A stretch of 64,000 nucleotides of DNA, taken from contig NC_043014.1 of NCBI RefSeq assembly GCF_006345805.1, positions 19,158,001 to 19,222,000 of the forward strand, in the 5' to 3' direction. The notes beneath the pieces are model-generated. The model was not told the origin of the DNA. It was given only the letters and a program-made list of their open reading frames with translations, and made no database searches. Of this stretch, positions 1,039 to 60,185 are shown one piece after another. Position numbers and translations under genes: made by a program. The first letter of the stretch is position 1, and each line of letters begins with the position of its first letter. The stretch comes from Octopus sinensis. Lineage: Eukaryota.

Positions 1039-2795
1039 TTCCTGTATGTGTATGCCACTTGTGTTTGCTACTCTCTTTTTTCTCCTACAACAACTAGACT
1101 TTGGATAAATGAAAAGTGAAGCAGTGGGGATAAATGTTCTGATGGTACACAGCCTCCCTACCAGCAAGACTTTTGCTGAATCACCTCTTTGCATGCATGG
1201 TTACTGTGAACCTCTCCATTCTGAGCTAAAGCATAGGGGATCTTGGAGCTGAAATGGACCGAAGAGGAAGACAGACAGAGTTCACCGGTGCGTGGACACT
1301 CGTTGGTGACACTCAGTCACTGTCCTAGCTAAGAGTTTGTAACAAGTCTAAAAGGGCTTCATCTGTAATTGGTAACTCATCTAGGAGCAAAAAGCACTCT
1401 GAAAACAGCATTAGCAATGAGAGCAATAAGAACATAAAGATTAAACGATCAAACTAGGAGCATCTGTACAAGAGGGGCAAAACTTCATTCGATCAAAGGC
1501 GAATTCCATGTGCTTAAGAACCTGTGTGGAGCATCTGTACTGAGGATAACACTGAATCTTTAATTGCAAAATGCTGGAAATACCTTGTTCACTGGTTAGT
1601 ATTTCTCAATATTTCCTTCGTGTGGCCTTTCGACTCATATCTCAATCAAATCACAGTTTATCCTCAAAAATGATAAAGAGTACATTAGAAAATTAAATTC
1701 TATGTCATTGTTTTTTTGGTTTTTTTTGTAGGAATGGTGCAGAGGGGATAGAAATTGGCGCACTCAAAGTGCCAGATTTAACAAACTATGTTGCCTTTCG
1801 CCCTTTTTGACTTGTGAAGCATCCTGGTGAAGGAAGAAGAATTATATGGATATAAAATCTCTTTTCCCATCTCATTAGCAAAGACTGGGGAGCGATGCCA
1901 GAACATATATCATTCCTATTTTATAAAGACATGCCTTATTAAAAATTTTTTCCTGTAAAAGAAATCGCAAAGGACGTGGTTGGAATGCCTCTGATCATAG
2001 GATTGTTCAATGAGGCCCTTTTCTTTTTTAAGAGACTTCATCAAACATCTTTTTTCATTCGTTAATATAGAGTTCGCCCTCGGAAAGAAGTTTCCATTTA
2101 ACGCCGCTGTTAATGTTTTCGTCTTTAAGTTTCCAGATTAATGCTGAGAGGGTTTTTGCGTGCCTCTTCTCACTGTGCCTAAAGGTGTGCAGGAGCATCT
2201 GTATCTATTTGTGTGTTCATGTGAAAATTTGTCTCTGTGTATGTATCTGTATAGGAATGCTTGAAGTTGCTAATTATAACATGTAACCGAGCTTGTTTAG
2301 TGAATAAGATTTTCTCGGTAATCTAGAAACTTAAAGACGAGAACATTAATTACGACATCAAATCCTATATTAGCGGAAATGGTAAGGTTCACTGTTCAAA
2401 AGGTGTTCAATATACTCACTCGAGAATCTGTACTCTCAAAAGAACTTAAGAACTTCCAATGACTTTGAAGACTACAGAAACGAGATTTTTTCTTTATATC
2501 CGTCTTTAAAGAAAATACATCTTAGCAGAAATTACAGCTCGACCGTAGGACACATCTTAAGTCGTTCGCATCTAGTTGACACCAGATTTGCATAATGTTT
2601 GGTGTAACGGTGTTTTATTTTCTCTGCGTTTACTTCTGTCCTTTTCTATATGAGCGTTCTCATTCAAACGTCAAAAGCTTCGAACGCAGGTGACAAATCG
2701 TCTTGTTGTTTTATCAGCTTGAAAATGGGCGAAATAAATTAAATGCTTCGACCTGAAAACCCTGAGTAGGTGTATTTCATAAAACTTGTGGTTTG

Positions 2796-3450: not shown

Positions 3451-4999
3451 AAATGACATGGAAAACCTCTCAATAGCGAATACCTAAAGGGAGCTAACAA
3501 TGCGAATATTGACAAAGCCCTTATCCATCAATGGTTAATGTCCTCTGGTTTAAAATCAGAAATAGACGGGTTTATCATAGCAGCCCCAAATCAATGCTTA
3601 CCTACGAGAAGCTGTCAAGCCAACATCTTAAAGAGCGGCAGTAGCCCATGTCGTGTATGTCAACAACAAAATGAAACCATCGATTATGTTGTATTCATCT
3701 GCAGTCTTCTTGTGCCAACAGAGTATCTCAACAGGAATGATAGAGCAGCACAGTATATTCACTGGGTAACATGCAATGACATGAACAAGCCCCATGATGA
3801 AAAGTGGTAGGAACACAATCCACATCAAGAGCATGAAAATTGCTACATCTCACTCCTTTAGAACTTCACCGTTCAAACTGACGGAAAGATAGTTGCATAT
3901 AGGCCAGACATTATATTGACATTATATTGGGTTGTCCAGAAATTTCGTGTCGATTTTTAAAGGAAAGAAAAAGCCCCATAAATACTTGCCATTACATTTT
4001 TAATCAACCAAATATGAACCATTTTGTTGCACAATGCGTCTCCATCTTTCCTTTAACTGGAAAATTCCCTCTTCCCAGAATTGAGGTGGTTTCATGACAA
4101 AGAATTCATCAATGTATCTTTTTACGTCATCCAAGGAATTGAAATTTTTACCATTAAGACTATTCTGCAGAGGCCTGAATAAGTGGAAATCCGAAGGAGC
4201 GATATCTGGTGAATATGGAAGGTGAGGTAACACATCCCAGCCGAGCTGCAGCAATTTTTGTCTGGTTCCCAATGCATCAAGTGCCGAAAATGAACTTTCT
4301 TATCTTCCATTTTAAAGGTTTACAGGTTATAGGAACATAAACCTTCTTCTACGAAGAGATAGCTTAAACTGTGCTGTAAATGGAGGTGTAGTCAAATCCT
4401 ATTTTATGGACGCAACCATGTTCTAAAATAAGTCGAAAGATAAGCTACTATAAATCGGCACGAACGTTCCGGACAACCCAATATATGTCTGTCCCAATCG
4501 ACATAAATGTATCTATGAAGACCTATCAAAAAACTGAGCAAGTATGAATATCTTGAAATAGAAATTGTCAAAATGAGGAATCTCAAGATTAAAACAATAC
4601 TTGATATCATAGATGACCTAGTAGTGATAGCGAAAGGGACTAATTGCTACAACGCTCAGATACCAGGAAATCCAAAAATGGAAGAAATCCAAAAATAGTG
4701 CTCATGTGAACTGCCCATATCCTACGTACTATATTGTCTATGTAATCCCCAAAATATTTTAATCCATAAACAGTGTTAAAATACTTTTAGATACATAACA
4801 ACAAATGCATTTTACTGTCATCTTAACATCAGACTATCACCTTATAATCAAATTACAATTAAAACAAACTTCTCATTTGTTTATGCTTTGACTGACATTC
4901 TTTAGAACAATACTCTGTGCAAAATAGAATATATGGCACCAATTTGAACTTCTAACTTGTTGTCACTTGAGGTCTCTGGGTGAGACTTGGAGTCAATTT

Positions 5000-9315: not shown

Positions 9316-9503
9316 AATTTTGAGGGAGGGGGTAAGTTGTATACATCGACCCCGGTACTCAACCGGTACTTATTTTATCCACCTCGAAAGGATGAAAGGC
9401 AAAGTTGACCCCGGAGGAATTTGAGCTCAGGACTTGAAGACAGACGAAATGCCGTCAAGCATTTAGCTCGGCGTGCTAACGATTCTGCCAGCTCACTGCC
9501 TTA
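9316..9503 (-). mobile_element. tRNA-derived SINE family B, monomer
   Basis: Reverse complement reads GGCAGTGAGCTGGCAGAATCGTTAGCACGCCG...GTCAACTTTGCCTTTCATCCTTTCG, matching copies at 31130, 42893, 59420. Confidence 0.88.
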
Positions 9504-9784
9504 TATATATCTATAATATTGATGAGTAGATCAACTATTTCAGTTTTCTCGGGGACATTTTTCCGTGAGAGTTTTGCAAAGAACTCAATGAAACAAGAAA
9601 AATAATCAAGTTTCGTAGCTATAGTATATAAATACGTAGAAAGAATTCATAAGAAATAACTCGTGGAAACATAAAAATATATATTACATTCAAATAAGCA
9701 TACGTATCATAGATATCCTCTCACTGAAACCGTGCTTGTGGTGGAAAGTGCTGATACAATTATATATATATATATATATCGTAG

Positions 9785-14059: not shown

Positions 14060-15690
14060 TCTCTCCAAATGTGTCATCATCCTTTCCTCCACTAACCCTC
14101 TACAGCACTCAAGAGTGGATGTTCTACCGCATTACTCGCCTGGTAGAGGGCAGTGAGTGCCGGACAACATTCCAGATGCCAGTCACCCAGTCTGGGTCTC
14201 TTCTTGACCCAGGACTGCAACTCAGTCAAGGAGACGAGCTGTGGAAAGGCCTGTTTGACCAACAGAGACAACACCTGTTCATCGTTTAGGCAGAATATCT
14301 AGAGATGCCGCAGTCTCAGCGCATGTGTGCATATCATTAGCCATGACATGCCCAGCCTTCCACGTACGGGGTGTTAGCAGCAGCTGAACCTGTTCACTCC
14401 ACATGAATTTGAAGATAAGACACACCAACAAGGGCGTGAAGTTGTCTGCCTTTCACAGCGCTCAGCTTCGGACATTGTGAGATGCGGCAAACCGTCGAGA
14501 TAGTGACTGACGTCCGCCATCATCTCCGCCCTGACACTCACTCCGAACAAACGAGGAAAGAGCTGGCGAAAGGTCTCACACATTTGCCTGGAATCGCTGA
14601 GCTTGTGTCCGTCTCGGTTCGTCAAAAACCTAATTGTGGTTTTGTTACCACGCTGCAACTCCGCCACGCGAGCCCATCGAACAGCTTTGATTCCTTCATT
14701 TCTTAGAGCATGCGCCTTAGCTCTGACATTGAACCTTCTAAGAATTGGTCTAATGCCATTCTCGCTTCTAGAACGTCAGTTGAAATGCCACTACAAATAA
14801 CCACGTCTAGTTTAACTACTAACCCCTCCTCTTTTCTATTTTTTCTAACATTATTTCTTTGCTAAACCCTATCAACATTACTGACCCCCATTCCCTTTCA
14901 ACTTCTGCTTAAGTAAATTGCTAACTCGGTCCCTGTAAGCCTTACGTGCCGGTAACGACATGCTCAGCTTCCGGTATTCGGCTTCTAACCTACGCGTCTT
15001 ATCTAGAATGACCGTACAGATTACAAACTGAATAGGAGACCGTTTTAAAAAGTGGACTTCCGAGATTATTACTATCTATTTTCCTAGTGAATAATCCTGT
15101 CAATATATACGATCTTGATAACCCTAAGCGGTTGGTACTGGTCCACAGTGGTGTATTAGGGAAATCTCGTCGGTAACTGTCAGACAGTTAGAACTGTCTG
15201 ATTAGGTGCTTGAGGATTTTGCCCCCCACTCTTCTATCAGCTACTCCCACGCAATACCAACGTTGATCGAAGATTCCGTTCCAGTCCCCTACTAACAGTA
15301 AAGAGTGAGACGTACCTAGAAAGCCTTCCAGACGCCTAAAGATATCCGGGCTTTTGGCTCCGGTAGACGGCCACCAGTCTAAAGGCAATACCTTCACTAT
15401 TCCTCATGTCCAGGACCATAGCTTCCCGTCCGGGTCCAGGAAGATCGATTTACCTTGAGATCCAGTTCTTTCCTAAACAGCACTGCAACTCCATCTCCCA
15501 TTTCCGGCCGACTAGCGGATGCAAAGATGTGGTAGTCGTCGATCATGGGGGCCAGTGCGCGTGTATTGGAAATCCTGGTCTCACTAAAAGGCAACTATAT
15601 CCAGTTCTAGAGACCTGAGGTCGTTGAGCGGGCGCCCCTGCTTCCAAGGCGACCTCAGGCCTCGAAAAGTTAAAAATCCTACACTTAGTA
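14060..15690 (-). mobile_element. L1/Tx1-clade LINE ORF2 remnant: APE endonuclease and linker, RT apparently deleted
   Basis: RGLRSPWKQGR..DLRSLELDIVAFSETRI; GDGVAVLFRK; LLLVGDWNGIFD; MCETFRQLFPRLFG...HYLDGLPHLTMSEAERCE, then jumps to C-terminal-like sequence. Confidence 0.85.
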
Positions 15691-17594: not shown

Positions 17595-17972
<378 letters not shown>

Positions 17973-17994
17973 CTAGTAGTCTAGCTTTCATTAC

Positions 17995-18778
17995 GTGCTT
18001 ATTCTGGAAGAAGTGGTAGTCAGTGGGGGCAAAATCTGATGAGTATGGTGGATGATGGAGAACTTTCAAATTCAACTCCTGTAGTTTCGCCAATATCATT
18101 TTTGCGATGTGTGGTCTGGCGTTGTCTTGCAATAAAATAGGAGCGGATCTGTTGACAAATCTAGTCTGTTTGGTTTTTTTTAAGTTTCTGCATCATTTGG
18201 TGCAGTATACTGTGGCCGTAATTGATAAGCCAGGTTTAATGAAATCATAATGGATCACACCTGCGCCAGTCCACCAAATACACGCTGTTAGTTTCTTTTG
18301 TTGAATTTTGCATTTTGAACTGTGTTTTGGTGGCTCGTCTTTGTTCGACCATTGTGCTGAACATTTACGGTTGTTGTATTGGTTCCATTTCTCATCATGT
18401 TACAATTCTATTCAAAACTGATTCATTTCTGTGACGAGAAGGTAGCATAATGCAAGTTTCCAAACGTTGCTGTTTCTGATTTTCATTGAGTACATGTGGA
18501 ACCCACTTATCGAAATTTTTCACTTTACCGATTTCAACTAGGTAAGTCAATATTGTTTGCTTGCTAACACCAAACAACAATGAAAATTCATGGAAACTTT
18601 CAAATGGATCTGGCACAACGGTGGCTTTCAGTTCGTCATTATCCTTCTTTGTTTCTGGTTGACCGCGCTGCTCATTTGTGAGGTCAACCTTACCAGAACG
18701 AAATTTTGCAAACCAATTTGATACTGCCTGCTGTGTCATAACATTAGAATGAAATACTCCATTATAATACTGGCACAA
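17995..18778 (-). mobile_element. Decayed mariner transposase
   Basis: NWFAKFRSGKVDLTNEQRGQP...KWVPHVLNENQKQQRLETC...RIVT; LQDNARPHIAK...VLHHPPYSSDFAPTDYHFF. Confidence 0.92.
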
Positions 18779-18849
18779 AATGAGCAGCTGTTAAAGTTAC
18801 CATATACCTTACTACAAATATCATACTTGACGACCTAATATATACACAG

Positions 18850-27308: not shown

Positions 27309-27629
27309 CACATATATATATATACATATATATATACATATATATACATATATATAAAATTCTATCCTATATCAATTATATATATATATACATATATATA
27401 TACATATATATGTATGTATGTATGTATATGTATGTATGTATGTATATGTATGTATGTATGTATGTATGTATATATATATATAATTGATATAGGATAACAT
27501 TTTTTTCGGGAAAAAATTTTTTATCAATGGCCAGCATATCAAAAAATGCCTTTAAAGGTAAAATTTATACATAATTTACAAGATAAGGGCGTGGGTATGA
27601 ATAAGTATTTCATTTATATCTCGCGTACG

Positions 27630-27688
27630 TGCCGCTGAAGTGGGGAAAATTTCTTGTGAATTAACCCCGAAATTGGACCAATACGGTA
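27630..27688 (+). ncRNA. Type-I hammerhead ribozyme motif, core variant CUGAAGU
   Basis: TGCCG-CTGAAGT-GGGG...CCCC-GAA-ATTGG-A-CCAAT-A-CGGTA. Confidence 0.7.
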
Positions 27689-28094
27689 ATAACGAATTTT
27701 TTAGAGATTTCTATCGGTTTGTTTCGAGACGCATAAATTTAATGGTTATCGACAATTTTTTTGTTTCGGCGTATCTGGCATTAGAATTTTTCTTCTGCCT
27801 TTATCTTGTAAATTATGTATAAATTTTACTTTAAAGGCATTTTTTGATATGCTGGCCATTGATAAAAAATGTTTTCTCGAAAAAAGTTTTATCCTATATC
27901 AATTATAAATAGATTAGTGTTTCACTTCCGGATTCTATCACTCTGTGAAAGTTTCTAGTTCGAATCACACGTGTCTCGAGGTGCGCCTAAGATTTTTCTA
28001 TTTAGATATATTTGGGGTACTTAAGTCGGCTCGGGACTTCGTGCTTGCTTCTTCCGTGGGTATGAATAAGTATTTCATTTATATCTCGCGTATG

Positions 28095-28153
28095 TGCCGC
28101 TGAAGAGGGGAAAATTTCTTGTGAATTAACCCCGAAATTGGACCAATACCGTA
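28095..28153 (+). ncRNA. Type-I hammerhead ribozyme motif, intact core, one stem-I mismatch
   Basis: TGCCG-CTGAAGA-GGGG...CCCC-GAA-ATTGG-A-CCAAT-A-CCGTA. Confidence 0.78.
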
Positions 28154-28277
28154 ATAACGAATTTTTTAGAGATTTCTATCGGTTTGTTTCGAGAGGCATA
28201 AATTTAATGGTTATCGACAATTTTTTGTTTCAGCATATCTGGCATTAGAATTTTTCTTCTGCCATTATCTTGTAAAT

Positions 28278-28280
28278 TAT

Positions 28281-28349
<69 letters not shown>

Positions 28350-30530: not shown

Positions 30531-31129
30531 TTAAAAAAGATATTCCATGTTCCTTTGCTTCGAAACCTGATGAATTTTACACATTTGTTTCTTTCTCATC
30601 TTGAAATGCGACAGCACCTTCTTTCTAATGTAATATATTTGCAGGCAAAACAGCCGCTGGCTCTCTCCACTCAGAGTTTCAGTCTTATCGAGATTAACAT
30701 TGACCACCATTCTTTCCGGATCGAAAAAGAACATATCATTTGTGTGTTTGTATACTTATCACATTCCGAACGTGTGTGTGTGTGTGTGTCTGTGTGCATA
30801 TGTGTGTGCGTGCGTGTGCAGTGCCATTGTCTTCCTTTGTTTGAAACTCCTAATTTTCCACTTAGACATTTACTAACATAATTAAATGCCCCAATGATTG
30901 TTAGGATAAATGCTAATTTATAATCAGAGAAGAGCAGCTGCAGGTTTCGAAGTAGCTGTTTCGCTGATTTTGGTAGAGAAGTTTACATCAGCAACACAGC
31001 TAACCTCTAAGATAATACATAACTTTTACTTTTCAGGTGTAAAATATCTATATCTGGTCTGATACGCTGGAACTAGGACTAAATGTTGATGGGAATACAG
31101 CAACACTATTTCATATGCATGTAGCGAAT

Positions 31130-31600
31130 GCGGCGAGCTGGCAGAATCGTTAGCATGCCGGGTGAAATGCTTAGCAATATTTCGTCTGCCGTTACGTTCT
31201 GACTTCAAATTCCGCCAAGATCGACTTTGCCTTTAACCCTTTCGGGGTCAATTAAATAAGTACCAGTTACGCACTGGGTTCGATATAATCGACTTTACCC
31301 ATTTGTCTGTCCTTGTTTGTCTTCTCTGTGTTTAGCCCCTTGTGGGCAGTAAAAAAATAGGTATTTCGTCTACCGTTACGTTCTGAGATCAAATTCCGCC
31401 GAGGTCGACTTTGCCTTTCATCCTTTCGGGGTCGATAAATTAAGTACAAGTTACGCACTGGGGTCGATCTAATCGACTTAATCCGTTTGTCTGTTCTTGT
31501 TTGCCCCCTCTATGTTTAGCCCCTTGTGGGCAATAAAAAAATAAGAATCGTTAGCACGTTGGACAAAATGCTTATCTTTATTTCGTCTGTCTTTACATTC
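31130..31600 (+). mobile_element. SINE family B, dimeric form plus a third head fragment
   Basis: A box TGGCAGAATCG, B box GA(C/G)TTCAAATTCC; ~185 bp unit restarts at GGTATTTCGTC (31360). Confidence 0.92.
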
Positions 31601-41005: not shown

Positions 41006-41560
41006 AATAATGGAATGAATTTTAAGGCTTTTAAATCTAATATTTTCCTATCCTTCCTTAATACCGGTTCCCGTATGCTATTCATATCTGCACACGGTTT
41101 TCGTATTTTCTAGTGGTGTTCACTGTCTATTATTTTAACTTCGTCCTACAGGGGGAGGATGTCTCCATTTTTCCATACGCGATCAGCTATACCCAATTTC
41201 TCAATATCTCCCGTGTCACAGCTTTGCAATATTCCTCCATTTTGAGGGGGCATGTTTCGCTTTTGTATAACCTACCACAACTGCATAGGCTGTAGTACAC
41301 ACAGTTCTTGGTAATATTCTCTTCTATTATTGGTTTTACTCGAAGGAGATATTTGCGAAGTGTTGTATTACTCTTGAATACTGTCCTGATATCATATGGG
41401 CCGCATATCTTTTGTATCTTTTCGGAGAGGACTTTCACATAGGGTAGACAAACTATGGACAATCTGTTGGTTTCATCCCTTCTTTTCTTCATAATTGGAG
41501 TGGATAGTATGTTTTGGGGTTAGTTGCTGCTTAATACATTGTTACTGAGCTTGATCATTT
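40993..41560 (-). mobile_element. Penelope-like element: thumb/linker and GIY-YIG endonuclease remnant
   Basis: ORF 41187-41492 CLPYVKVLSEKIQKICGPYDIRTVFKSNTTLRKYL...KNCVYYSLCSCGRLYKSET..L..EEY.K (cf. VYxIPCxCGxxYIGET.R.L..R..EH); C-terminus PCADMNSIREPVLRK. Confidence 0.9.
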
Positions 41561-41654
41561 CTTCGTGGTGTGTATGTAACACGATTGCTACTTATATTAT
41601 TTGCTCGATGTTTTAGGTACCGAGCAATCCCTCTCTTTACGCTGTATGGATGGT

Positions 41655-41725
41655 GGGAATATGGCGTAGTGGTTAAGAGCGCGGGCTACTAACCCTAAGA
41701 TTCCGAGTTCGGTTCCAGGCAGTGA

Positions 41726-41984: not shown

Positions 41985-44576
41985 ATCTGGTTGTTACCAA
42001 CAAACACTCTGTTTAAGCAGAAAAATGAATACAAAACCACCTGGATGCACCCAAGATCTAAGGACTGGCATCTCATAGATTATATTTTAATCAGATAGTG
42101 TGATATGAAAGATGTTTCTAGTGTTCGGGCCATGAGGGCAGCAGAGAGCTAGGCTGACCTTCGTCTAGTGCATGGAAAAATAATGCCTAAAAGTCGACAG
42201 TCTGGTCCTAAGGTACACATAACGTAAAACTTTGCAAATTTCAAATTACGAAGCAGTTTGCAAAGATTCCACGATGCTATGAAATGTATCAATCTTGACC
42301 AAAACATTATGGGAAGATTTCAAATCAAAAGTATTTCAGGCTGCAAGCTCGTCAGAGAGATATAAATATATTAATTTGTCACAGTTCGAAAACTGAGAAA
42401 GTGCCTCAAGACTGGACTGATGCCATTTTAGTCTACTTGTATAAATCGGGGCTATAGAATCTGTGTGGTAATTTTCGGGAGATTTTGCTTTTGTCTGTAG
42501 TTGGAAAAATACTAGCCCACATTCAGTTAGAACGTTTAAACACCTTCATAGTTACATATATGGTATCTGAGTCTCAATGTGATTTTTGCTCCTCCAGGGG
42601 CACAGTTGATTGTACAATTTCAGGAAAAGTGCATTGAACAGAAACTTGCCCTATGCCATTGCTTTGTTGATCTGAGCAAAGCATCTGATATTGTTAATCG
42701 AAATGCTATGTGGCTAATTCTTAGGGAAAAAGGTTGCCCAGAAAAAATTGCAAACACGATCAGGGCTTTGCATCAAGATATGAAAGTTAGAGTTAAGTTT
42801 GATGGTAGGCTTTCTGGATCTTTTGTCGTGGAAAATGAAGTAAAGGAATGAGACCTTGATGCACCCACCCTCTTTGCAATATACTTTGCTGTAGGGCGGT
42901 GAGCTGGCAATATCGCTAGCACGCTGGGCGAAATGCTTAGCGGTATTTCGTCTGCCGTTACGTTCTGAGTTCAAATTCCGCCGAGGTCGACTATGCTTTT
43001 CATCCTTTCGGGGTCGATAAATTAAGTACCAGTTACGCACTGGTGTCGATGTAATCGACTTAATCCGTTTGTCTGCCCTTGTTTGTCCCCTCTGTGTTTA
43101 GCCCCTTGTGGCTAGTAAAGAAATAGGTATTTCGTCTGCCGTTACGTTCTGTGTTCAAATTCCACCGAGGTCGACTTTGCCTTTCATCATTTCGAGGTCG
43201 ATTGAATAAGTACCAGTTACGCACTGGGGTTAATTTAATCGACTTAATCTCTTTGTCTGTCCTTTTTTGCACCCTCTATGTTTAGCACCCTATGGGCAAT
43301 AAAGAAATAAATACACTTTGCTGTTGCGCTGTCACACGCTTTTCAAAACTCCGAAGAGGGTATTTACATAAAATATCGGAGAACAGGGAATGTTTTTAAT
43401 CTGACCAGACTGAAATTCAAAACGAAAGTTTTTATTTCACTCACACTTTAGGGAACACTTATACGCGGACGATTGTGATCTAGTCAGTCATTCTGAAACA
43501 GGTCTGCTATCTCTTGTAGCTGCATTTGTCTCAGCTTGTGATTTTTGGCTTAACCATCAACTTGAAAAAAAAGAACAGTTGTAATGCATCATCTTGCACA
43601 TGGTGCTGTTTGCAACTCATCTACTTGAGGTTGTTGATTCCTTCATCTCCCTTAGAATCTCTGTACAAATTGATGGAAATCTGAACACAGAAATACATCT
43701 GCGAATTCAAAAGGCAGCACAAGCATTTGGTGGCTTGAGTCACGCGCCAACGTCATATGAATAACAACACAAAATTGGCTCTTTACAAATCGATTGTCTT
43801 ACCATCCCTGTTGTATTCTTCTGAAACATGGACATGTTATGAAAGACATTTCAAATTGTTAGAACGATTCCACTAAACATACCTTCATCGCATTTTAAAC
43901 ATTAAATGGAGCCTTTTTTTACTCCAAGCATTCCAATTAAAGCAATGATTCGGAATAACCAAATGAAATGGTGTGGCCATATTTTTCGAATAGCGGATGA
44001 ACACACGCACACAAACAACTGTTGTATGGTGAACCTGCAGAGGTGAAACGCTATCGGTGTAAGCCTAAAAAGAATTTTAAGGACGGCATAATGAGTAACT
44101 TGAAGTCACTTAGAATGGATCCAGAGGACTTAGAAACTCTTGCTTCGGATCGAGCTGGAGGGCGAACAAAAGTGTGGAGTAGAGTGAAAGCGTTTGAAGA
44201 GGCCAGGCTAACGCATGCAAGACTCAAGAGAGATTCAAAGAAGAATATTACGATCGAAAAGTTGAAACACAACGAACTTTTGTGTACACAGTTTGTGACA
44301 GACCATGCATTTCTTTTGCTGGGTTCAAATCTCATTTGCGGATCCATACCTTTCAATGCCGTGTATGCCATAAGGTCTGCAAATCTAGCGGAAGCCTCAA
44401 AAGACATTTTAAGATCCACAAAGATCAGAATTTAACTGCAGCTGTTGGTGGTCCAAATCGGATATGCAAACTATATGGGCGTCTTTCCAAAACATTGTCT
44501 GGTTTAAAAAGCCACATCAGACGCAATGGTGGATATAAGAGGTGGTCAAACTCTGCATAAGGAGTAGATAACCACC
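41985..44576 (+). mobile_element. 5'-truncated RTE-clade LINE (APE end, RT, C-terminal C2H2 fingers) with (TATG)n tail
   Basis: KTTWMHPRSKDWHLIDYIL; QEKCIEQK...FVDLSKASDIVNR; APTLFAIYF; LYADDCDL; LLYSSETWT; LLYGE; ends GGTGGT...ACCACC hairpin then (TATG)n 44577-44650. Confidence 0.93.
42893..43309 (+). mobile_element. SINE family B dimer inserted in the RTE RT, with 15 bp target-site duplication
   Basis: AATATACTTTGCTGT (42878-42892) and AATACACTTTGCTGT (43310-43324) flank it. Confidence 0.93.
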
Positions 44577-48007: not shown

Positions 48008-48181
48008 TTAGGTTTCGAATTTTGGCACAAGGCATAAAATTCCTGCGAGTAAGTCGATAACCCTAAAGGATGAAAAGTAAAGTTGATCTCGGCGGAATTT
48101 GACCTCAATACCTAAAGACGGACCAAATACCATTAAGCATCTTTCCCGTCGCGCTAACGAATCTGCCAGCCCACCGCCTCG
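48008..48181 (-). mobile_element. SINE family B, degenerate monomer
   Basis: AAAGGATGAAAAGTAAAGTTGATCTCGGCGGAATTTGA...GCTAACGAATCTGCCAGCCCACCGCCT. Confidence 0.8.
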
Positions 48182-48825: not shown

Positions 48826-49866
48826 TCAATATCTGTCCCACACTTTTTTCTCCTCGATCCTACTTTTCTCCTCAATGTTCCTCCAACACCAGCCCGCTAT
48901 CTCAAACCTGGTCCCTACTTCAGCCATTACCTCTGCGTGTAGTTCTCCATAGCCTCAACCGTATTTGATTTATAAACATATGTTTAGCAACATACCTACC
49001 AACAGCACCTCCCTTTACAATACTACCCATCTCACGCCTTCTTCCTTCTCTCTTTACTCATCACTTCTAATTCCATTCAATCCATCCCTTAGTCACTCAC
49101 CTACTACTATCTCTTGCTGCCCTTCCTCTGCTTCAATACTTCCTTCCTCTGCTTCAATACTTCCACCTGCATCGTCCTTCTACTGGCTTTTTTTCACCAT
49201 CCTCTTCTCCCATTCTACCCTTAAATTTTCTCGCGCCATAATAAGTTAGGATTTTACTTTTCATTAATATTGTTAAATTTTATTAGATTATTTATTATTA
49301 AGATACATATATTTCTATATTTATTGTTTAATTATTATATATTCATTTCACTTTTAATATTATCGATTTTAATAATATCGATAGTCACGAAACGCGCGTA
49401 GTCAGTTTAATGTTTATTTAATTTAGTAATTTTTAGAATAATATTTATTATAATATATTTAAATTCTTTCTATATGATTTATTATAGTTAATATCTTTCA
49501 CTATTAATTGAATTACTTAGAGGTCTTTGTGTCTTAATTATGTATATATATTGATATATATATGTATAAATATATATATATATTGATATATATATATATA
49601 TATATTGATATATATATATATATTTATATATAGAGGGCATTATACATACATGCCAGAAGGCATTATACATACATGCCACACGCTAAGAGGGACAATTAGT
49701 CATTTCTACCAAAAATATTACTAATCCCACCGAATGCAATTTTTCAAAGTAAGACATTTAAAAAATATAGACCTGTATCACAGTGATTTCATACTTACGT
49801 ATTCATCAGCAGGCCTGAATGTATTATAAATAAACATATATTATATGTATAAATATATATATTGAT

Positions 49867-49900
<34 letters not shown>

Positions 49901-49917
49901 GTGTGTGTATATATATA

Positions 49918-49974
<57 letters not shown>

Positions 49975-50015
49975 TATATATGTATGTATATATATGTGTA
50001 TATATATGTATATAT

Positions 50016-50640
50016 ACAACTTATAAATAAGGGCAAACGAAAAAATTTCTAATGCTAAATATGCCGAAATTGGACATATTGTCCATAACCAAATAATTTT
50101 TCACAATACGCACGCTACTCGAAAAAAGGTCGACAGAAATTTTCTAAAAAATGCCATTATTACCATATCGGACCGATTTCAGGGTTAGTTCGTTACAACC
50201 ATCCCTTCGTCAGTGATAAATGTGGCAAAAGAAATAAATAAGATACTTACTCATACCCATGGAAGAAGCAAAACACTAAGTCATGAGCACAATTCTGTAC
50301 CCCAAATATATCCAAAATAGAAATAGTCCAGCCCATTCAAGACACGTGCGATTTGAACTGAGGGTCTCACAGAGAGAGAGTCCGGAAGTGAACTAACCCT
50401 GAAATCGGCCCGATAATGCAATTTTTTAGAAATTTCTGTCGACCTTTTTTCGACTAGCGTGCGTATTGTGAAAAATTATTTGGTTATGGACAATATGTCC
50501 AATTTCGGCAAATTTTGCATTTGAAATTTTTTCGTTTGCCCTTATTTATAAGTTGTTTATAATTTTAACCTTTAAAGGTATTTTTTAATAAAAAATTTTT
50601 TCGAAAAAAATAAATTATCCGACATTAAATATAAATTTTA
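50016..50640 (-). mobile_element. Non-coding PLE-like unit (minus, 50390 to 50016) with inverted partial copy (plus, 50390-50640), in (TA)n
   Basis: 50016-50191 and 50390-50556 are inverted repeats; the minus unit aligns to 27923-28280. Confidence 0.85.
50160..50219 (-). ncRNA. Intact type-I hammerhead ribozyme
   Basis: Minus strand TTATCA-CTGACGA-AGGG...CCCT-GAA-ATCGG-T-CCGAT-A-TGGTAA; 6 bp stem I with one G-U; AUA site. Confidence 0.87.
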
Positions 50641-50647
50641 TATATAT

Positions 50648-50723
<76 letters not shown>

Positions 50724-53264: not shown

Positions 53265-55470
53265 TAACGACCAATAGAATAGATTATTATCAAAGAATTC
53301 CTAATATTGGGCTACAAGTTACCATACATGCCAAGTACATTCCTGAGTATCCAGACTGTCCTTAATAACACTGTTCTCTGGAGCTGCAACTTGTTTTATG
53401 TCTATTTTCTCTATTGATCTGTTAGATTCATTCAGAATATTTCCTTCTGCACCAATAACTACTGGAGTGCATTTTTTCCACACTTTCCATAAACTCAGTA
53501 ACTCAATACCTAGGTCCTGTTGCTTTGCTATTTTCTCTACACCTCTCATATTGACTTTCTCCCCATTCATGACTGTAAAATCAATTACCAGACACTTTCT
53601 ATTCTCTTTGTCTACTACTACTAAATCAGGCCATCTTGCTTCTATTACTCTCTCAATCTGAATGTTAAAATCCTACATCTAATATTTCTTACCTTCTAAC
53701 ACTTTACTAGGTCCGTGCTCATACCATTAAAATCTTAGCTCCCAGTGGATTATTCTCCTTAGGTTACCATGTCCTTTCTTGTATTCTTTCTGTGCCAGCA
53801 TATTGCATTCACTAACTATATGTGTAACACTTTCCTTCTTTGATAAATATAGCCTAAAATGGGAATCTACCTGGTTTTTTATCTACCTTAGCTTTTATCC
53901 AATTAGTCTACAATACCTGATCTTCTGCTGCTACTAGCAAACCTCTCTCATTTTTCAGCCTTCCTTTTTGCTACCACGACCAATCTCCGTCACCCTATTT
54001 CCTGCAACTATACTTCGAAAGCTTTCCCTTACCAGTCAGATAACCTCGCTTCTTTTTTGCTGGTTTTAAACTTGATTTAGCTTTTCGGTTTCCCTGTCTC
54101 CTACTTTTACATGAGCAGCACTTAATACAGTTTCCTTACAGTTTTCTATATATGATGCCATATCTACTCTTACTAATTTCACACAGTCTTCAACTCATAT
54201 TACACCTTTATCACCTTCCTTTCTAGGTAAAGTCAATCTTGCTACTCCTAATCTAGGATCAATTCCTCCATTCATATTGAATTCCGTACTAGTTCTGTCT
54301 AGATTTAGTAATTCAGATTTTGTCCTCTCTACAAAGACTGTGGAATAACTGAGTAACGATAGTGCCCAAGTATTTAAAACTTTCTCTAGATTCGGACTAT
54401 TTAGCTTTGACTGCATTAACCTCTCCTGCACTCTTTCATAATTTTCTCATCCATTTCTATAGTTAGTACTCTGTCAGATTCTAATGCTTTCACTGATTTT
54501 AATATCTGGCCATCTGGTAATTATCCAATTACCAGATGGCCAGATATAACTCTTTTACTCTCTTTTACTCTTTTACTTGTTTCAGTCATTTGACTGCGGC
54601 CATGCTGGAGCACCGCCTTTAGTCGAGCAAATCGACCCCAGGACTTATTCTTTGTAAGCCCAGTACTTATTCTATCGGTCTCTTTTGCCGAACCGCTATG
54701 TGACGGGAACGTAAACACACCAGCATCAGTTGTCAAGCCAATGCTAGGGGGACAAACACAGACACACAAACATACACACACACATATATATATACATACA
54801 TATATACGACGGGCTTCTTTCAGTTTCCGTCTACCAAATCCACTCACAAGGCTTTGGTTGGCCCGAGGCTATAGTAGAAGACACTTGCCCAAGATGCCAC
54901 GCAGTGGGACTGAACCCGGAACCATGTGGTTGGTAAGCACGCTACTTACCACACAGCCACTCCTGCGCCTATAAAATTCATTAAAATCATTAAAATTCAT
55001 AAAATGCCTTCGTTGCTGACCGTCTTTTTTATGACTAATATTGCGCACTTATCAATGCCAAATTCCATGCCTATATCTTTGCTGAAGTGTCTTACAGTTT
55101 GAATTAAGATAGCTATCTCTGTCTATTCTTATTAAAAAGCTTCAGATCATCCATGTAGAGCAAATGGTTAGTTTTCCTTTACTATTTCTAAACTGATACT
55201 TGCCTTTGCCTTACTTAAAACTGAACTGAGGTGGACTAGAAATAACACAGATATTGAGGGCGATAACGAATCACCTTGAACATTCTGTTCTTGATATCGA
55301 CTTTCCCAAAGGCTGTGTCATCTGAGTAAAGATCTACTTTACATTTCTTCATGCTATTGCTAATTAATTCTCTTATGTTGTCTGTAATTCTGAATATACT
55401 CAAACTTTCACTCATCCATGATTGTAGAATCACGTCTGCTATAGGCTTTCCTATAATGTATCCAGGATAC
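53265..55470 (-). mobile_element. R4/Dong-clade LINE remnant (RT to RLE) ending at (TAA)n
   Basis: NHLLYMDDLK at 55140-55169; LNTWALSLLSY...RLTLPRKEGDKG; WPDLVVVDKENRKCLVID; TPVVIGAEG. Confidence 0.9.
54553..54972 (-). mobile_element. Full-length tRNA/CORE-type SINE family A nested in the R4/Dong element
   Basis: Reverse complement GGCGCAGGAGTGGCTGTGTGGTAAG (A box)...GGTTCAGTCCC (B box)...CTTGGGCAAGTGTCTTCTAC (CORE-like), internal (TA)/(TG) tract, (AAAAGAGT)n-like tail. Confidence 0.93.
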
Positions 55471-58690: not shown

Positions 58691-59419
58691 TTTTAATATA
58701 TTATAGAGTAGATAGATAACAAACCTGGCTGTCAATGAGGTCCCATTTTCAGAGGCTAGATCGCAAAGTTATACACTGCTGCCTACCCGAAGGTTAAATT
58801 TGTGAAACGTTGTAGGTTCCAACTTAATTGTTACCGTTTTAATTCTGCCACTTTTGGCAATCTCGTTAATAATTGGCCGATTTGTATTATTAGTTGTGTT
58901 GACGTTGATAAATCGAATTAGATAAAAAAAAAATTACAATATAAAAAAAAACCTATTTGTTCACATAATTCACAATTTGAAATTTAGCTAAAAATTAAAG
59001 CAGAAACATCAATTTTGCTTTTACAACTGAAATTTTTAAAAAAATTAATGGTAAAACGGTGTTGGGAGGAAGACACTGAAGTTAAGAACGAATATTAATG
59101 AAAGATGATGTAGTATCTACTTTAATAAGGATAAAAGCATTAATGTTTATAGAATAAAAATATATACTTTATATGATGAAGAAAATCTAGAAAAAAATGT
59201 ATGTAGACACGTATATGTATACCAAGATACGTTCAGGCATACAAACGCGCGCACACAGGTAAACGGTTTGATAAGAGATAATAAGAAGGGGAATATAAAA
59301 TATGTATAATGATGATAGAAATATTGATAAACGCTGTAGTAAAAAAATATGGCAAACAAAAAATAATATAATACTATACTAAGACTGAAAGTGAAATATC
59401 AATATTTAAGGAAGTAAGA

Positions 59420-59880
59420 GGGCGGCGAGCTAGCAGAAGCGTTAGCGCGCCGGCGAAATGCTTATCATTATTTCGTCTGCCGCTACGTTCTGAGTTCAAA
59501 TTCTGCCGAGGTCGACTTTGCCTTTCATCCTTTCGGGGTCGATTAAATAAGTATCAGTTACGCACTAGGGTCGATATAATCGACTTAATCCGTTTGTCTG
59601 TCCTTGTTTGTCCTGTCTGTGCTTAGCCCCTTGTGGGTAGTAAAGCAAATAGGTATTTCGTCTGCCGCAACGTTCTGAGTTCAAATTCTACCGAGGTCGA
59701 CTTTGCTTTTCATCCTTTCGGTGTCGATTAAATAAGTACCAGTTACGCACTGGGGTCGATATGATGGACTTAATCCGTTTGTCTGTCCTTGTTCGTCCTC
59801 TCTGTGGGTAGTAAAGAAATATGTATTTCTCCCGTTCTGTGTTCAAATTTCGGCGAACTCGACTTTGCTATTCATCCTGT
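59420..59880 (+). mobile_element. SINE family B, dimer plus partial third unit
   Basis: Units restart at GGTATTTCGTC (59652) and TGTATTTC (59822). Confidence 0.9.
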
Positions 59881-59971
59881 CTGTTTAAATAAAATACCTA
59901 CCAACTTAGCTGATACCCGTAACTTGCTGGCCTTGTGTTAAAAATTTGAAACAATATTTAAGGTAGTAGTA

Positions 59972-60185
59972 AGGCGGTTAGCTGGCGGAATCGTTAACAC
60001 GTGTGGCATAATCCTTAGCGGTACTTCGTATGTCTTTACATTCTGAGTTCAAATTCCGACGTGGTCGACTTTGCACTTCATCCCTTCGGGGTCGATAAAA
60101 TAAGTACCAGTTAAGCACTGGTATTGATGTAATCGACTTACTCCCTTCCCCGATCTTGCTGGACTTGTGCCGGAATTTGAAACCA
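59972..60185 (+). mobile_element. SINE family B, monomer subfamily
   Basis: GGCGGTTAGCTGGCGGAATCGTTA...GTCGACTTTGCACTTCATCCCTTCGGGGTCGATAAAATAAGTACCAG. Confidence 0.85.

Follow-up and report, generated by a model that had tools for sequence, protein, structure and literature searches.

The 64-kb window, by which we mean the whole stretch of octopus DNA analysed (64,000 nucleotides), contains at about 50 kb two joined copies of a repeat that we refer to as family A. The minus-strand copy (50016-50393) extends from the unit head at 50393 as far as 3' end site 1, some 150 nt past a predicted ribozyme cut, where its junction with (TA)n can be read, and it is 93-94% identical to two natural full-length family A copies used for comparison (L005 and L013). 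Fused to it is an inverted, 5'-truncated plus-strand copy (50389-50640), which starts inside helix II of the hammerhead and reaches to 3' end site 2, where (TA)n follows; the 3' half of its hammerhead is damaged and its 3' domain carries a deletion. The span 50016-50640, which the initial annotation had treated as one unit, is therefore two copies in opposite orientations. A (TA)n-rich target tract lies to the left (49850-50015) and a (TA)n tract to the right (50641-50721). Close by is a 5'-truncated copy of another family, C (49635-49835, minus strand), with its own type I hammerhead (core from 49809, cleavable A at 49776) and the same insertion style. The 50 kb locus holds only one complete hammerhead, and it is likely a dead-end insertion of an ORF-less, high-copy repeat.

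That complete motif occupies 50219-50160 on the minus strand. Its parts are helix I TTATCA/TGGTAA (50219-50214/50165-50160), the core CTGACGA (50213-50207), helix II AGGG/CCCT (50206-50203/50184-50181), GAAA (50180-50177), the palindromic helix III TCGG-T-CCGA (50176-50168) and UA at 50167-50166, which belongs to an AUA triplet; A50166 is the cleavable base and the cut is predicted between 50166 and 50165. A CUGANGA and GAAA core, an NUH triplet, a three-helix junction and an open helix I make this a type I hammerhead, and the motif and cut site originally proposed were recovered with all core parts and helices. Descriptor scans of the 64-kb window gave two strict and three loose matches, where 100 block-wise dinucleotide shuffles averaged 0.00 and 0.03, and the exact A/B motif pattern (family B being described below) matched 1,165 times in the genome (2.72 Gb, 13,516 contigs) against none for the reversed pattern. 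The shuffles and the reversed-pattern control thus place the hammerhead at 50219-50160 beyond chance, and core-intact A/B motifs number at least 1,165 in the genome. The proposed check against Rfam did not bear the motif out: no hammerhead model matched 49650-50640, even at E<=10, and no hammerhead was among the 150 of 173 matches listed for the whole window. ARAGORN found no tRNA within the window.

The initial annotation had also aligned the minus-strand unit with sequence at 28 kb, and this relationship holds: 27921-28278 aligns with it at 70.6% over 385 columns (E 1.7e-37). The 28 kb locus, of family B, begins with an inverted tail, after which a truncated unit and a further unit follow in direct tandem. 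The inverted tail (27472-27590, minus strand) ends at site 2 before (TA)n; the 5'-truncated upstream copy (27590-27914, plus strand) is joined tail to head, with a 465-nt period, to a unit (27915-28288, plus strand) that runs from its head to site 1 and then (TA)n and is 94-95% identical to the B copies L041 and L048. The first hammerhead (27630-27688, plus strand) has helix I TGCCG/CGGTA and intact helices around a broken core (CTGAAGT); the second (28095-28153, plus strand), inside the region aligned with A, has an intact core and a helix I mismatch (TGCCG/CCGTA). The B hammerhead as first quoted is thus a composite of two separately damaged copies and occurs in neither of them, but it is the natural sequence of other B copies (for example, L033, L041, L046 and L047). 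A 465-nt circle cannot come from the 50 kb or the 28 kb locus itself.

The window is AT-rich and rich in microsatellites. It also carries a dispersed repeat of about 180-190 nt in tandem and single copies that are 75-92% identical (31127-31544, 42891-43310, 48061-48179, 59400-60147 and 9324-9523), a short remnant of a Neptune-type endonuclease (2061-2186, minus strand) and a broken fragment of a Poseidon-like Penelope-like element (PLE; 41098-41655, minus strand), whose family has 2,295 candidates. Further ORF remnants, at 4000-4299, 17728-18790, 14374-14775, 42552-42851, 44001-44560 and 53319-53672, are presumably mariner transposase-like and LINE reverse transcriptase/endonuclease-like.

From cut to cut, natural units measure 474-480 nt in A, 498 nt in subfamily A2 and 465-467 nt in B, so the length of about 465 nt first suggested applies to the B period and not to A or A2. 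The A/B units have a GC content of 31-35%, are rich in hairpins (circular fold z between -2.2 and -5.4 relative to 25 shuffles each) and contain one type I hammerhead per non-coding unit; the earlier statement that no ORF is present was confirmed, as stop-free stretches reach only 53-73 aa in the five units tested. DNA searches returned 2,361 first-look candidates for A and 2,255 for B, with 40 scored in each case, and these figures are not copy numbers. The motif pattern of subfamily E matched 79 times in the genome against none for its control, and an A/B-like pattern with a purine at helix III position 2 gave no match. Family C (L121-L150) is an ORF-less hammerhead unit of 480 nt whose best copies are 99-100% identical; its arrays reach four or more units, and it has two 3' end sites in (TA)n. 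It is probably the youngest family and the best suited to experiments. Families D and D2 (L012:1796-2028, L091-L120 and L260-L289) have only the 3' domain in common with A/B. Their cores are often non-canonical: 10 of the 27 D copies have C at position 4, the D2 copies seen have U at position 3, and the families have amplified regardless. Another hammerhead type, with core CCGATGA and helix III CAC-GTG or CAC-A-GTG, was seen on the minus strand of L100 (at about 1200) and L144 (at about 2222).

Between the A and B hammerheads, 8 of 26 helix positions differ and 13 of 13 pairs are kept; the sixth helix I pair of A is not kept in B. These differences comprise three two-sided changes, one per helix, and two one-sided changes, both in helix I, so the claim of compensatory changes in all three helices stands for one change in each and fails for the remaining two in helix I. 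In a simulation, the probability of keeping 13 of 13 pairs given eight changes was about 5-7e-4, a post hoc value because the structure was chosen first, and the A-B covariation represents about four independent events, not many. In subfamilies A2 and E there are further changes that preserve pairing, namely a G-C to A-U swap in helix II of A2, and TATCG/CGATA (helix I) and GGAG/CTCT (helix II) in E. Across an alignment of 80 of the 105 parsed copies (those left out were mostly repeated sequences; 74 rows are distinct), 96.9% of cells were paired, against 91.7% when shuffled and 32-45% when slid, and five pairs showed two-sided change. The percentage paired and the covariation score exceeded all 500 shuffles, but two counts stayed within the range of the shuffles, covarying pairs at 41 of 500 and pair types at 326 of 500; the kinship of the copies inflates such measures. 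Hammerheads are intact in 60 of the 105 parsed A/B copies (three mis-parsed B copies were counted as broken) while pairs are kept between subfamilies, which supports the view that selection acted on the source elements and that inserted copies decay neutrally. Selection on the ribozyme fold, as proposed initially, is accordingly favoured at the level of subfamilies, where all 13 pairs survive eight changes, and not for individual copies.

Helix III is palindromic around one base in A, B, C, D and two autonomous families, N1 and N5, that are described below, and around two bases in E. The initial annotation had deduced dimeric folding from the 1-nt loop. The loop alone does not imply a dimer because a 4-bp helix with a 3-nt loop is possible; dimeric folding is nevertheless supported, since in A the hairpin is predicted at 0.0 and the duplex at -13.9 kcal/mol and since the palindrome recurs in unrelated families. 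The corresponding hairpin and duplex energies are +1.8 and -8.9 kcal/mol in B, +0.8 and -10.1 in C, +2.4 and -7.6 in D, and +2.1 and -7.4 in N1. The innermost helix III pair is predicted to be unable to form in a monomer, yet it is G-C in A/B and C-G in C, D and N1. In addition, in the minimum free energy fold of the A monomer (-16.6, as opposed to -11.7 for the catalytic fold) the core is paired with helix III, and the same pairing appears in the consensus fold of nine A/B copies. The hammerhead is therefore predicted by these folding models to cleave only as a pair of copies; hammerheads acting as dimers with a palindromic helix III are already known, according to the portions available of two earlier reports (PMC4209133; PMC3088659).

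The insertions were analysed in 81 A/B loci (90 minus 9 duplicates). Among the 3' ends that face outward, 101 of 122 lie at two sites, about +156 and +235 from the predicted cut in A and +141 and +226 in B, and none lies within 10 nt of the cut. (TA)n follows 81 of the 122, compared with 171 of 4,050 background positions. Inversions are found in 44 of the 81 loci, with arms of unequal length at every locus, and a tail-to-head junction in 40; the tail measures about 80-85 nt. Two outward 3' ends are present in 42 loci, 29 with both at defined sites and 13 with at least one end elsewhere, and all 29 of the former have one site of each kind at the two ends (0.5^29 = 2e-9). The same rule holds in 8 of 8 two-ended loci of family C and in 6 of 6 cleanly parsed two-ended loci of N1, whose 3' ends lie in (TA)n at +36/40 or +107. 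A bias towards microsatellite targets, 5'-truncated partial tandems, inversions and two fixed 3' ends, which serve as criteria for PLEs, are all present in A/B; tails, inversions and two start sites of reverse transcription are given as PLE hallmarks in the text available of PMC8557442 and PMC11167929. Our search of the literature for the one-site-per-end rule yielded nothing beyond the known observation that the tail is often at one end.

Only 1 of 101 5' breakpoints falls within 5 nt of the cut, against 2.6 expected. Because the insertions read through the cut and past the head, the template covers the uncleaved cut site and more than a single unit, and is either a ligated circle or an uncut multimer; cleaved linear RNA is ruled out by the lack of a breakpoint pile-up at the cut. 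The divergence of tandem copies within and between loci (0.060 and 0.085 in A, 0.039 and 0.050 in B, 0.012 and 0.013 in C) does not separate circle from multimer.

Both end sites lie in the 3' domain. Ten copies were chosen from A, B, E, D and D2, and in eight of them this domain is predicted to fold into a four-way junction followed by a long hairpin, with site 1 in the junction loop and site 2 just past the hairpin. Fold z-scores of the chosen copies range from -0.9 to -6.5. Both sides of the closing helix have changed between A/E, B and D, and D matches A over only about 70 nt, all within this domain. A joint RNAalifold prediction, in which the families were misaligned, did not recover the four-way junction, and the plus-strand copy in the window (50389-50640) has lost it. 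In this, the A/B end sites parallel the two internal start sites of reverse transcription described, in the portion available of the report, for an anole element (PMC11167929).

A Neptune/Nematis-type endonuclease fragment adjoining a B copy led to N1 (L181, G000:C5:61732500-61740500), an element with an intact ORF of 717 aa, 270-bp pLTRs and a type I hammerhead with a non-canonical core. A search with N1 gave 21,736 candidates, with 150 near-identical top matches, and its public homologues number 120 among the matches listed, all without names. Its protein has a CxC-CPL-C linker ahead of the GIY-YIG domain, and its probable placement in the Neptune/Nematis clade is based on that linker as described in the available part of PMC8557442. 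Pfam gave no family for the PLE ORFs tested, including that of N1. N5 (L303-L332) is a second intact Neptune-type family, of 727 aa, 44% identical to N1, with a palindromic type I hammerhead; the copies of both N1 and N5 are near-identical. One N1 copy, in L323, has an inverted tandem of family C directly against its 3' end. N2 (L244-L259) is Neptune-like; its linkers are long and Asn-rich, its open frames reach 1,124 aa, and its 3' region is long, with no hammerhead core seen within 900 nt of the endonuclease.

As a source of the A/B pLTR sequence, N1 gave a best match of 18/20 nt (E 0.02), and N2 and N5 have no pLTR sequence in common with A/B. The Poseidon-like family, traced from 41187-41519 in the window, has its own minimal hammerhead almost without helix III and no similarity to A, B or C (30 loci). 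In L290, an old Neptune-type ORF lies by an E copy with (TA)n between them and no matching 3' repeat. An autonomous family carrying the A/B pLTR sequence was thus not found among the four families tested. Fragments of PLE ORFs occur in only 4 of 102 A/B/E loci (L011, L045, L052 and L301), the first three being separated from the unit by (TA)n or other sequence, and a reverse transcriptase/GIY-YIG ORF contiguous with the unit head was seen in none of the 102.

We consider it likely that the A/B unit is a non-autonomous PLE, that is, a non-LTR retrozyme copied into (TA)n by a Neptune-type reverse transcriptase/GIY-YIG protein, with a hammerhead predicted to act only as a dimer. The two-site ends of N1 in (TA)n and the palindromic hammerheads of N1 and N5 were counted in favour of PLE mobilization. 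A tandem source locus would be transcribed; in the transcript, a lone hammerhead is predicted to adopt an inactive fold with its core paired to helix III, and adjacent copies to pair their palindromic helix III strands and cleave, releasing unit-length RNA. This RNA may then be ligated into a circle, a step to which we give about an even chance; otherwise the uncut multimer would be the template. A dimeric PLE protein would bind the 3' four-way junction and hairpin, nick both strands of (TA)n and prime at two internal sites, one per strand. The expected products, which end at +156/+235 (A) or +141/+226 (B), read through the cut and past the head, and are partial tandems and inversions whose two ends use one site each, are those observed in the insertions. 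Several findings count against this explanation: the want of a matching autonomous family among those tested, the often non-canonical core of D and that of N1, covariation in so far as it rests on about four events, B 3' domains only weakly more stable than shuffles (z of -0.9 and -1.2), and two same-strand hammerheads in only 6 of 81 A/B loci, not all of them intact. Published results weigh on the same side, since only one of nine retrozyme dimers cleaved in one study (bioRxiv 10.64898/2026.07.22.740005) and insertion in vitro could dispense with hammerhead cleavage in another (PMC11167929). A more specific and tentative proposal, in our judgement somewhat short of probable, is that these are PLE-parasitic RNA circles built of two separable modules. 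One would be a hammerhead that is gated by dimer formation and counts units; the other, a four-way junction resembling a tRNA together with a hairpin, would have a structure conserved between the unrelated families A/B/E and D and would dock a dimeric Neptune-type reverse transcriptase/endonuclease, each subunit priming one site on opposite target strands. If so, asymmetric twin priming could be read from the genome in the one-site-per-end rule, which would also be direct evidence for the movement of retrozymes by PLE machinery. The repeat family is present on contigs of three sequencing runs, whose RNA origin is a guess; such contigs cannot reveal ends or circles and speak neither for nor against expression.

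The initial annotation had left a choice between solo pLTRs and retrozyme-like units, and the ORF-less units of 465-500 nt with one hammerhead each fit the latter. That A/B are solo pLTRs or 3' truncation products of another autonomous Penelope-like element would agree with the hammerhead, tail and inversions, which are pLTR features, and only 61 of 36,722 first-look candidates from the Neptune-type protein search were scored. We nevertheless regard this origin as improbable, because a unit head is preceded by the unit's own tail in 40 of 81 loci, no ORF occupies the parent position in 102 loci, and none of the few PLE ORF fragments is joined to a unit as a pLTR would be (three inspected). More serious, and still doubtful in our view, is the possibility that A/B are non-autonomous PLEs in which the hammerhead is a retained structure or a late, protein-assisted cutter, so that uncut multimers serve as templates and no circles form. 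Inserted copies that all read through the cut without a breakpoint pile-up, deviant D-lineage and N1 cores in families that amplified, and insertion in vitro that was unaffected by hammerhead mutants (PMC11167929, from the text available) are what it would lead one to expect. It accounts less well for helices that differ among the common forms of A, A2, B and E, their pairing preserved, around an unchanged core, or for a palindrome favouring dimers that recurs in families otherwise dissimilar.

The least credible reading, to which we attach very little weight, is a satellite or MITE-like DNA element whose hammerhead match is incidental to its hairpins. The unit is indeed rich in hairpins, inverted copies resemble terminal inverted repeats and the Rfam models found no match; however, the 5' ends are variably truncated and the 3' ends fixed, a polarity that retrotransposition also shows and that contradicts a DNA transposon, the inverted arms are never of equal length, and a full catalytic core with three helices is kept across subfamilies.

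As judged from sequence, the class to which A/B belongs is already known, a non-autonomous PLE that fits the description of non-LTR retrozymes, and the family itself may already be catalogued under some name. Derivation of non-LTR retrozymes from PLEs has been proposed, in the portions available of the sources (PMC7229834; bioRxiv 10.64898/2026.07.22.740005). According to these texts, metazoan non-LTR retrozymes resemble A/B as ORF-less, low-GC, self-paired units of a few hundred nucleotides with one type I hammerhead, found in head-to-tail repeats and coexisting with PLEs. They differ in unit size (170-400 nt in PMC7229834 and 51-972 in the preprint, against 465-500 nt), in forming long arrays, whereas most A/B copies are scattered through (TA)n as partial tandems and inversions, and in having a helix III of 1-2 bp with a tetraloop, whereas A/B have a 5-bp odd palindrome. 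PLE-type two-site 3' ends are read directly in A/B; in the preprint, Li, Clavereau and Pollet reported cleavage in one of nine retrozyme dimers. Cephalopods are not mentioned in the searched text of the 2020 paper (Cervera and de la Pena, PMC7229834) or among the groups sampled in the 2026 text. Our search of the literature on octopus and cephalopod hammerheads, Penelope and repeats, with Repbase, Dfam and subscription papers outside its scope, returned no description of A/B, and the available part of an octopus repeat annotation (PMC13282606) makes no mention of ribozymes.

Comparable parallels exist among PLEs, as far as the available portions of the reports describe them. The pLTR hammerheads of Neptune/Nematis EN+ PLEs are, as in A/B, of type I with a palindromic helix III suited to dimers, and these elements likewise form partial tandems and inverted 5'-truncated copies with a tail at one end in microsatellite targets (PMC4209133; PMC8557442); A/B differ in having no ORF and a tail of about 80-85 nt rather than 30-40 (PMC8557442), and they match none of the four tested autonomous families in pLTR sequence. 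In the Poseidon element PAc of the green anole (Frangieh et al. 2024, PMC11167929), two start sites downstream of the hammerhead define the tail and the target is AT-rich, as in A/B, and PAc extends both target strands. PAc is autonomous, with start sites located within its ORF, whereas those of A/B are in a non-coding junction loop and after a long hairpin; hammerhead cleavage is dispensable for PAc insertion in vitro. Chlamys elements such as MRC1 are also ORF-less PLE dependants with pLTR-like and head-to-tail insertions, but most of them have no hammerhead, and a known autonomous partner has 3' sequence in common with them (PMC8557442); no such partner was found for A/B among the four families tested. 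To the link between retrozymes and PLEs, which the available text of the 2026 preprint argued from phylogeny, A/B add direct evidence in the form of insertion signatures. They offer a short non-coding substrate with two mapped putative priming sites, in a genome that also holds intact Neptune-type ORFs and the very young sister family C, and thereby make testable the role of the PLE hammerhead and the choice between circles and uncut multimers as template.
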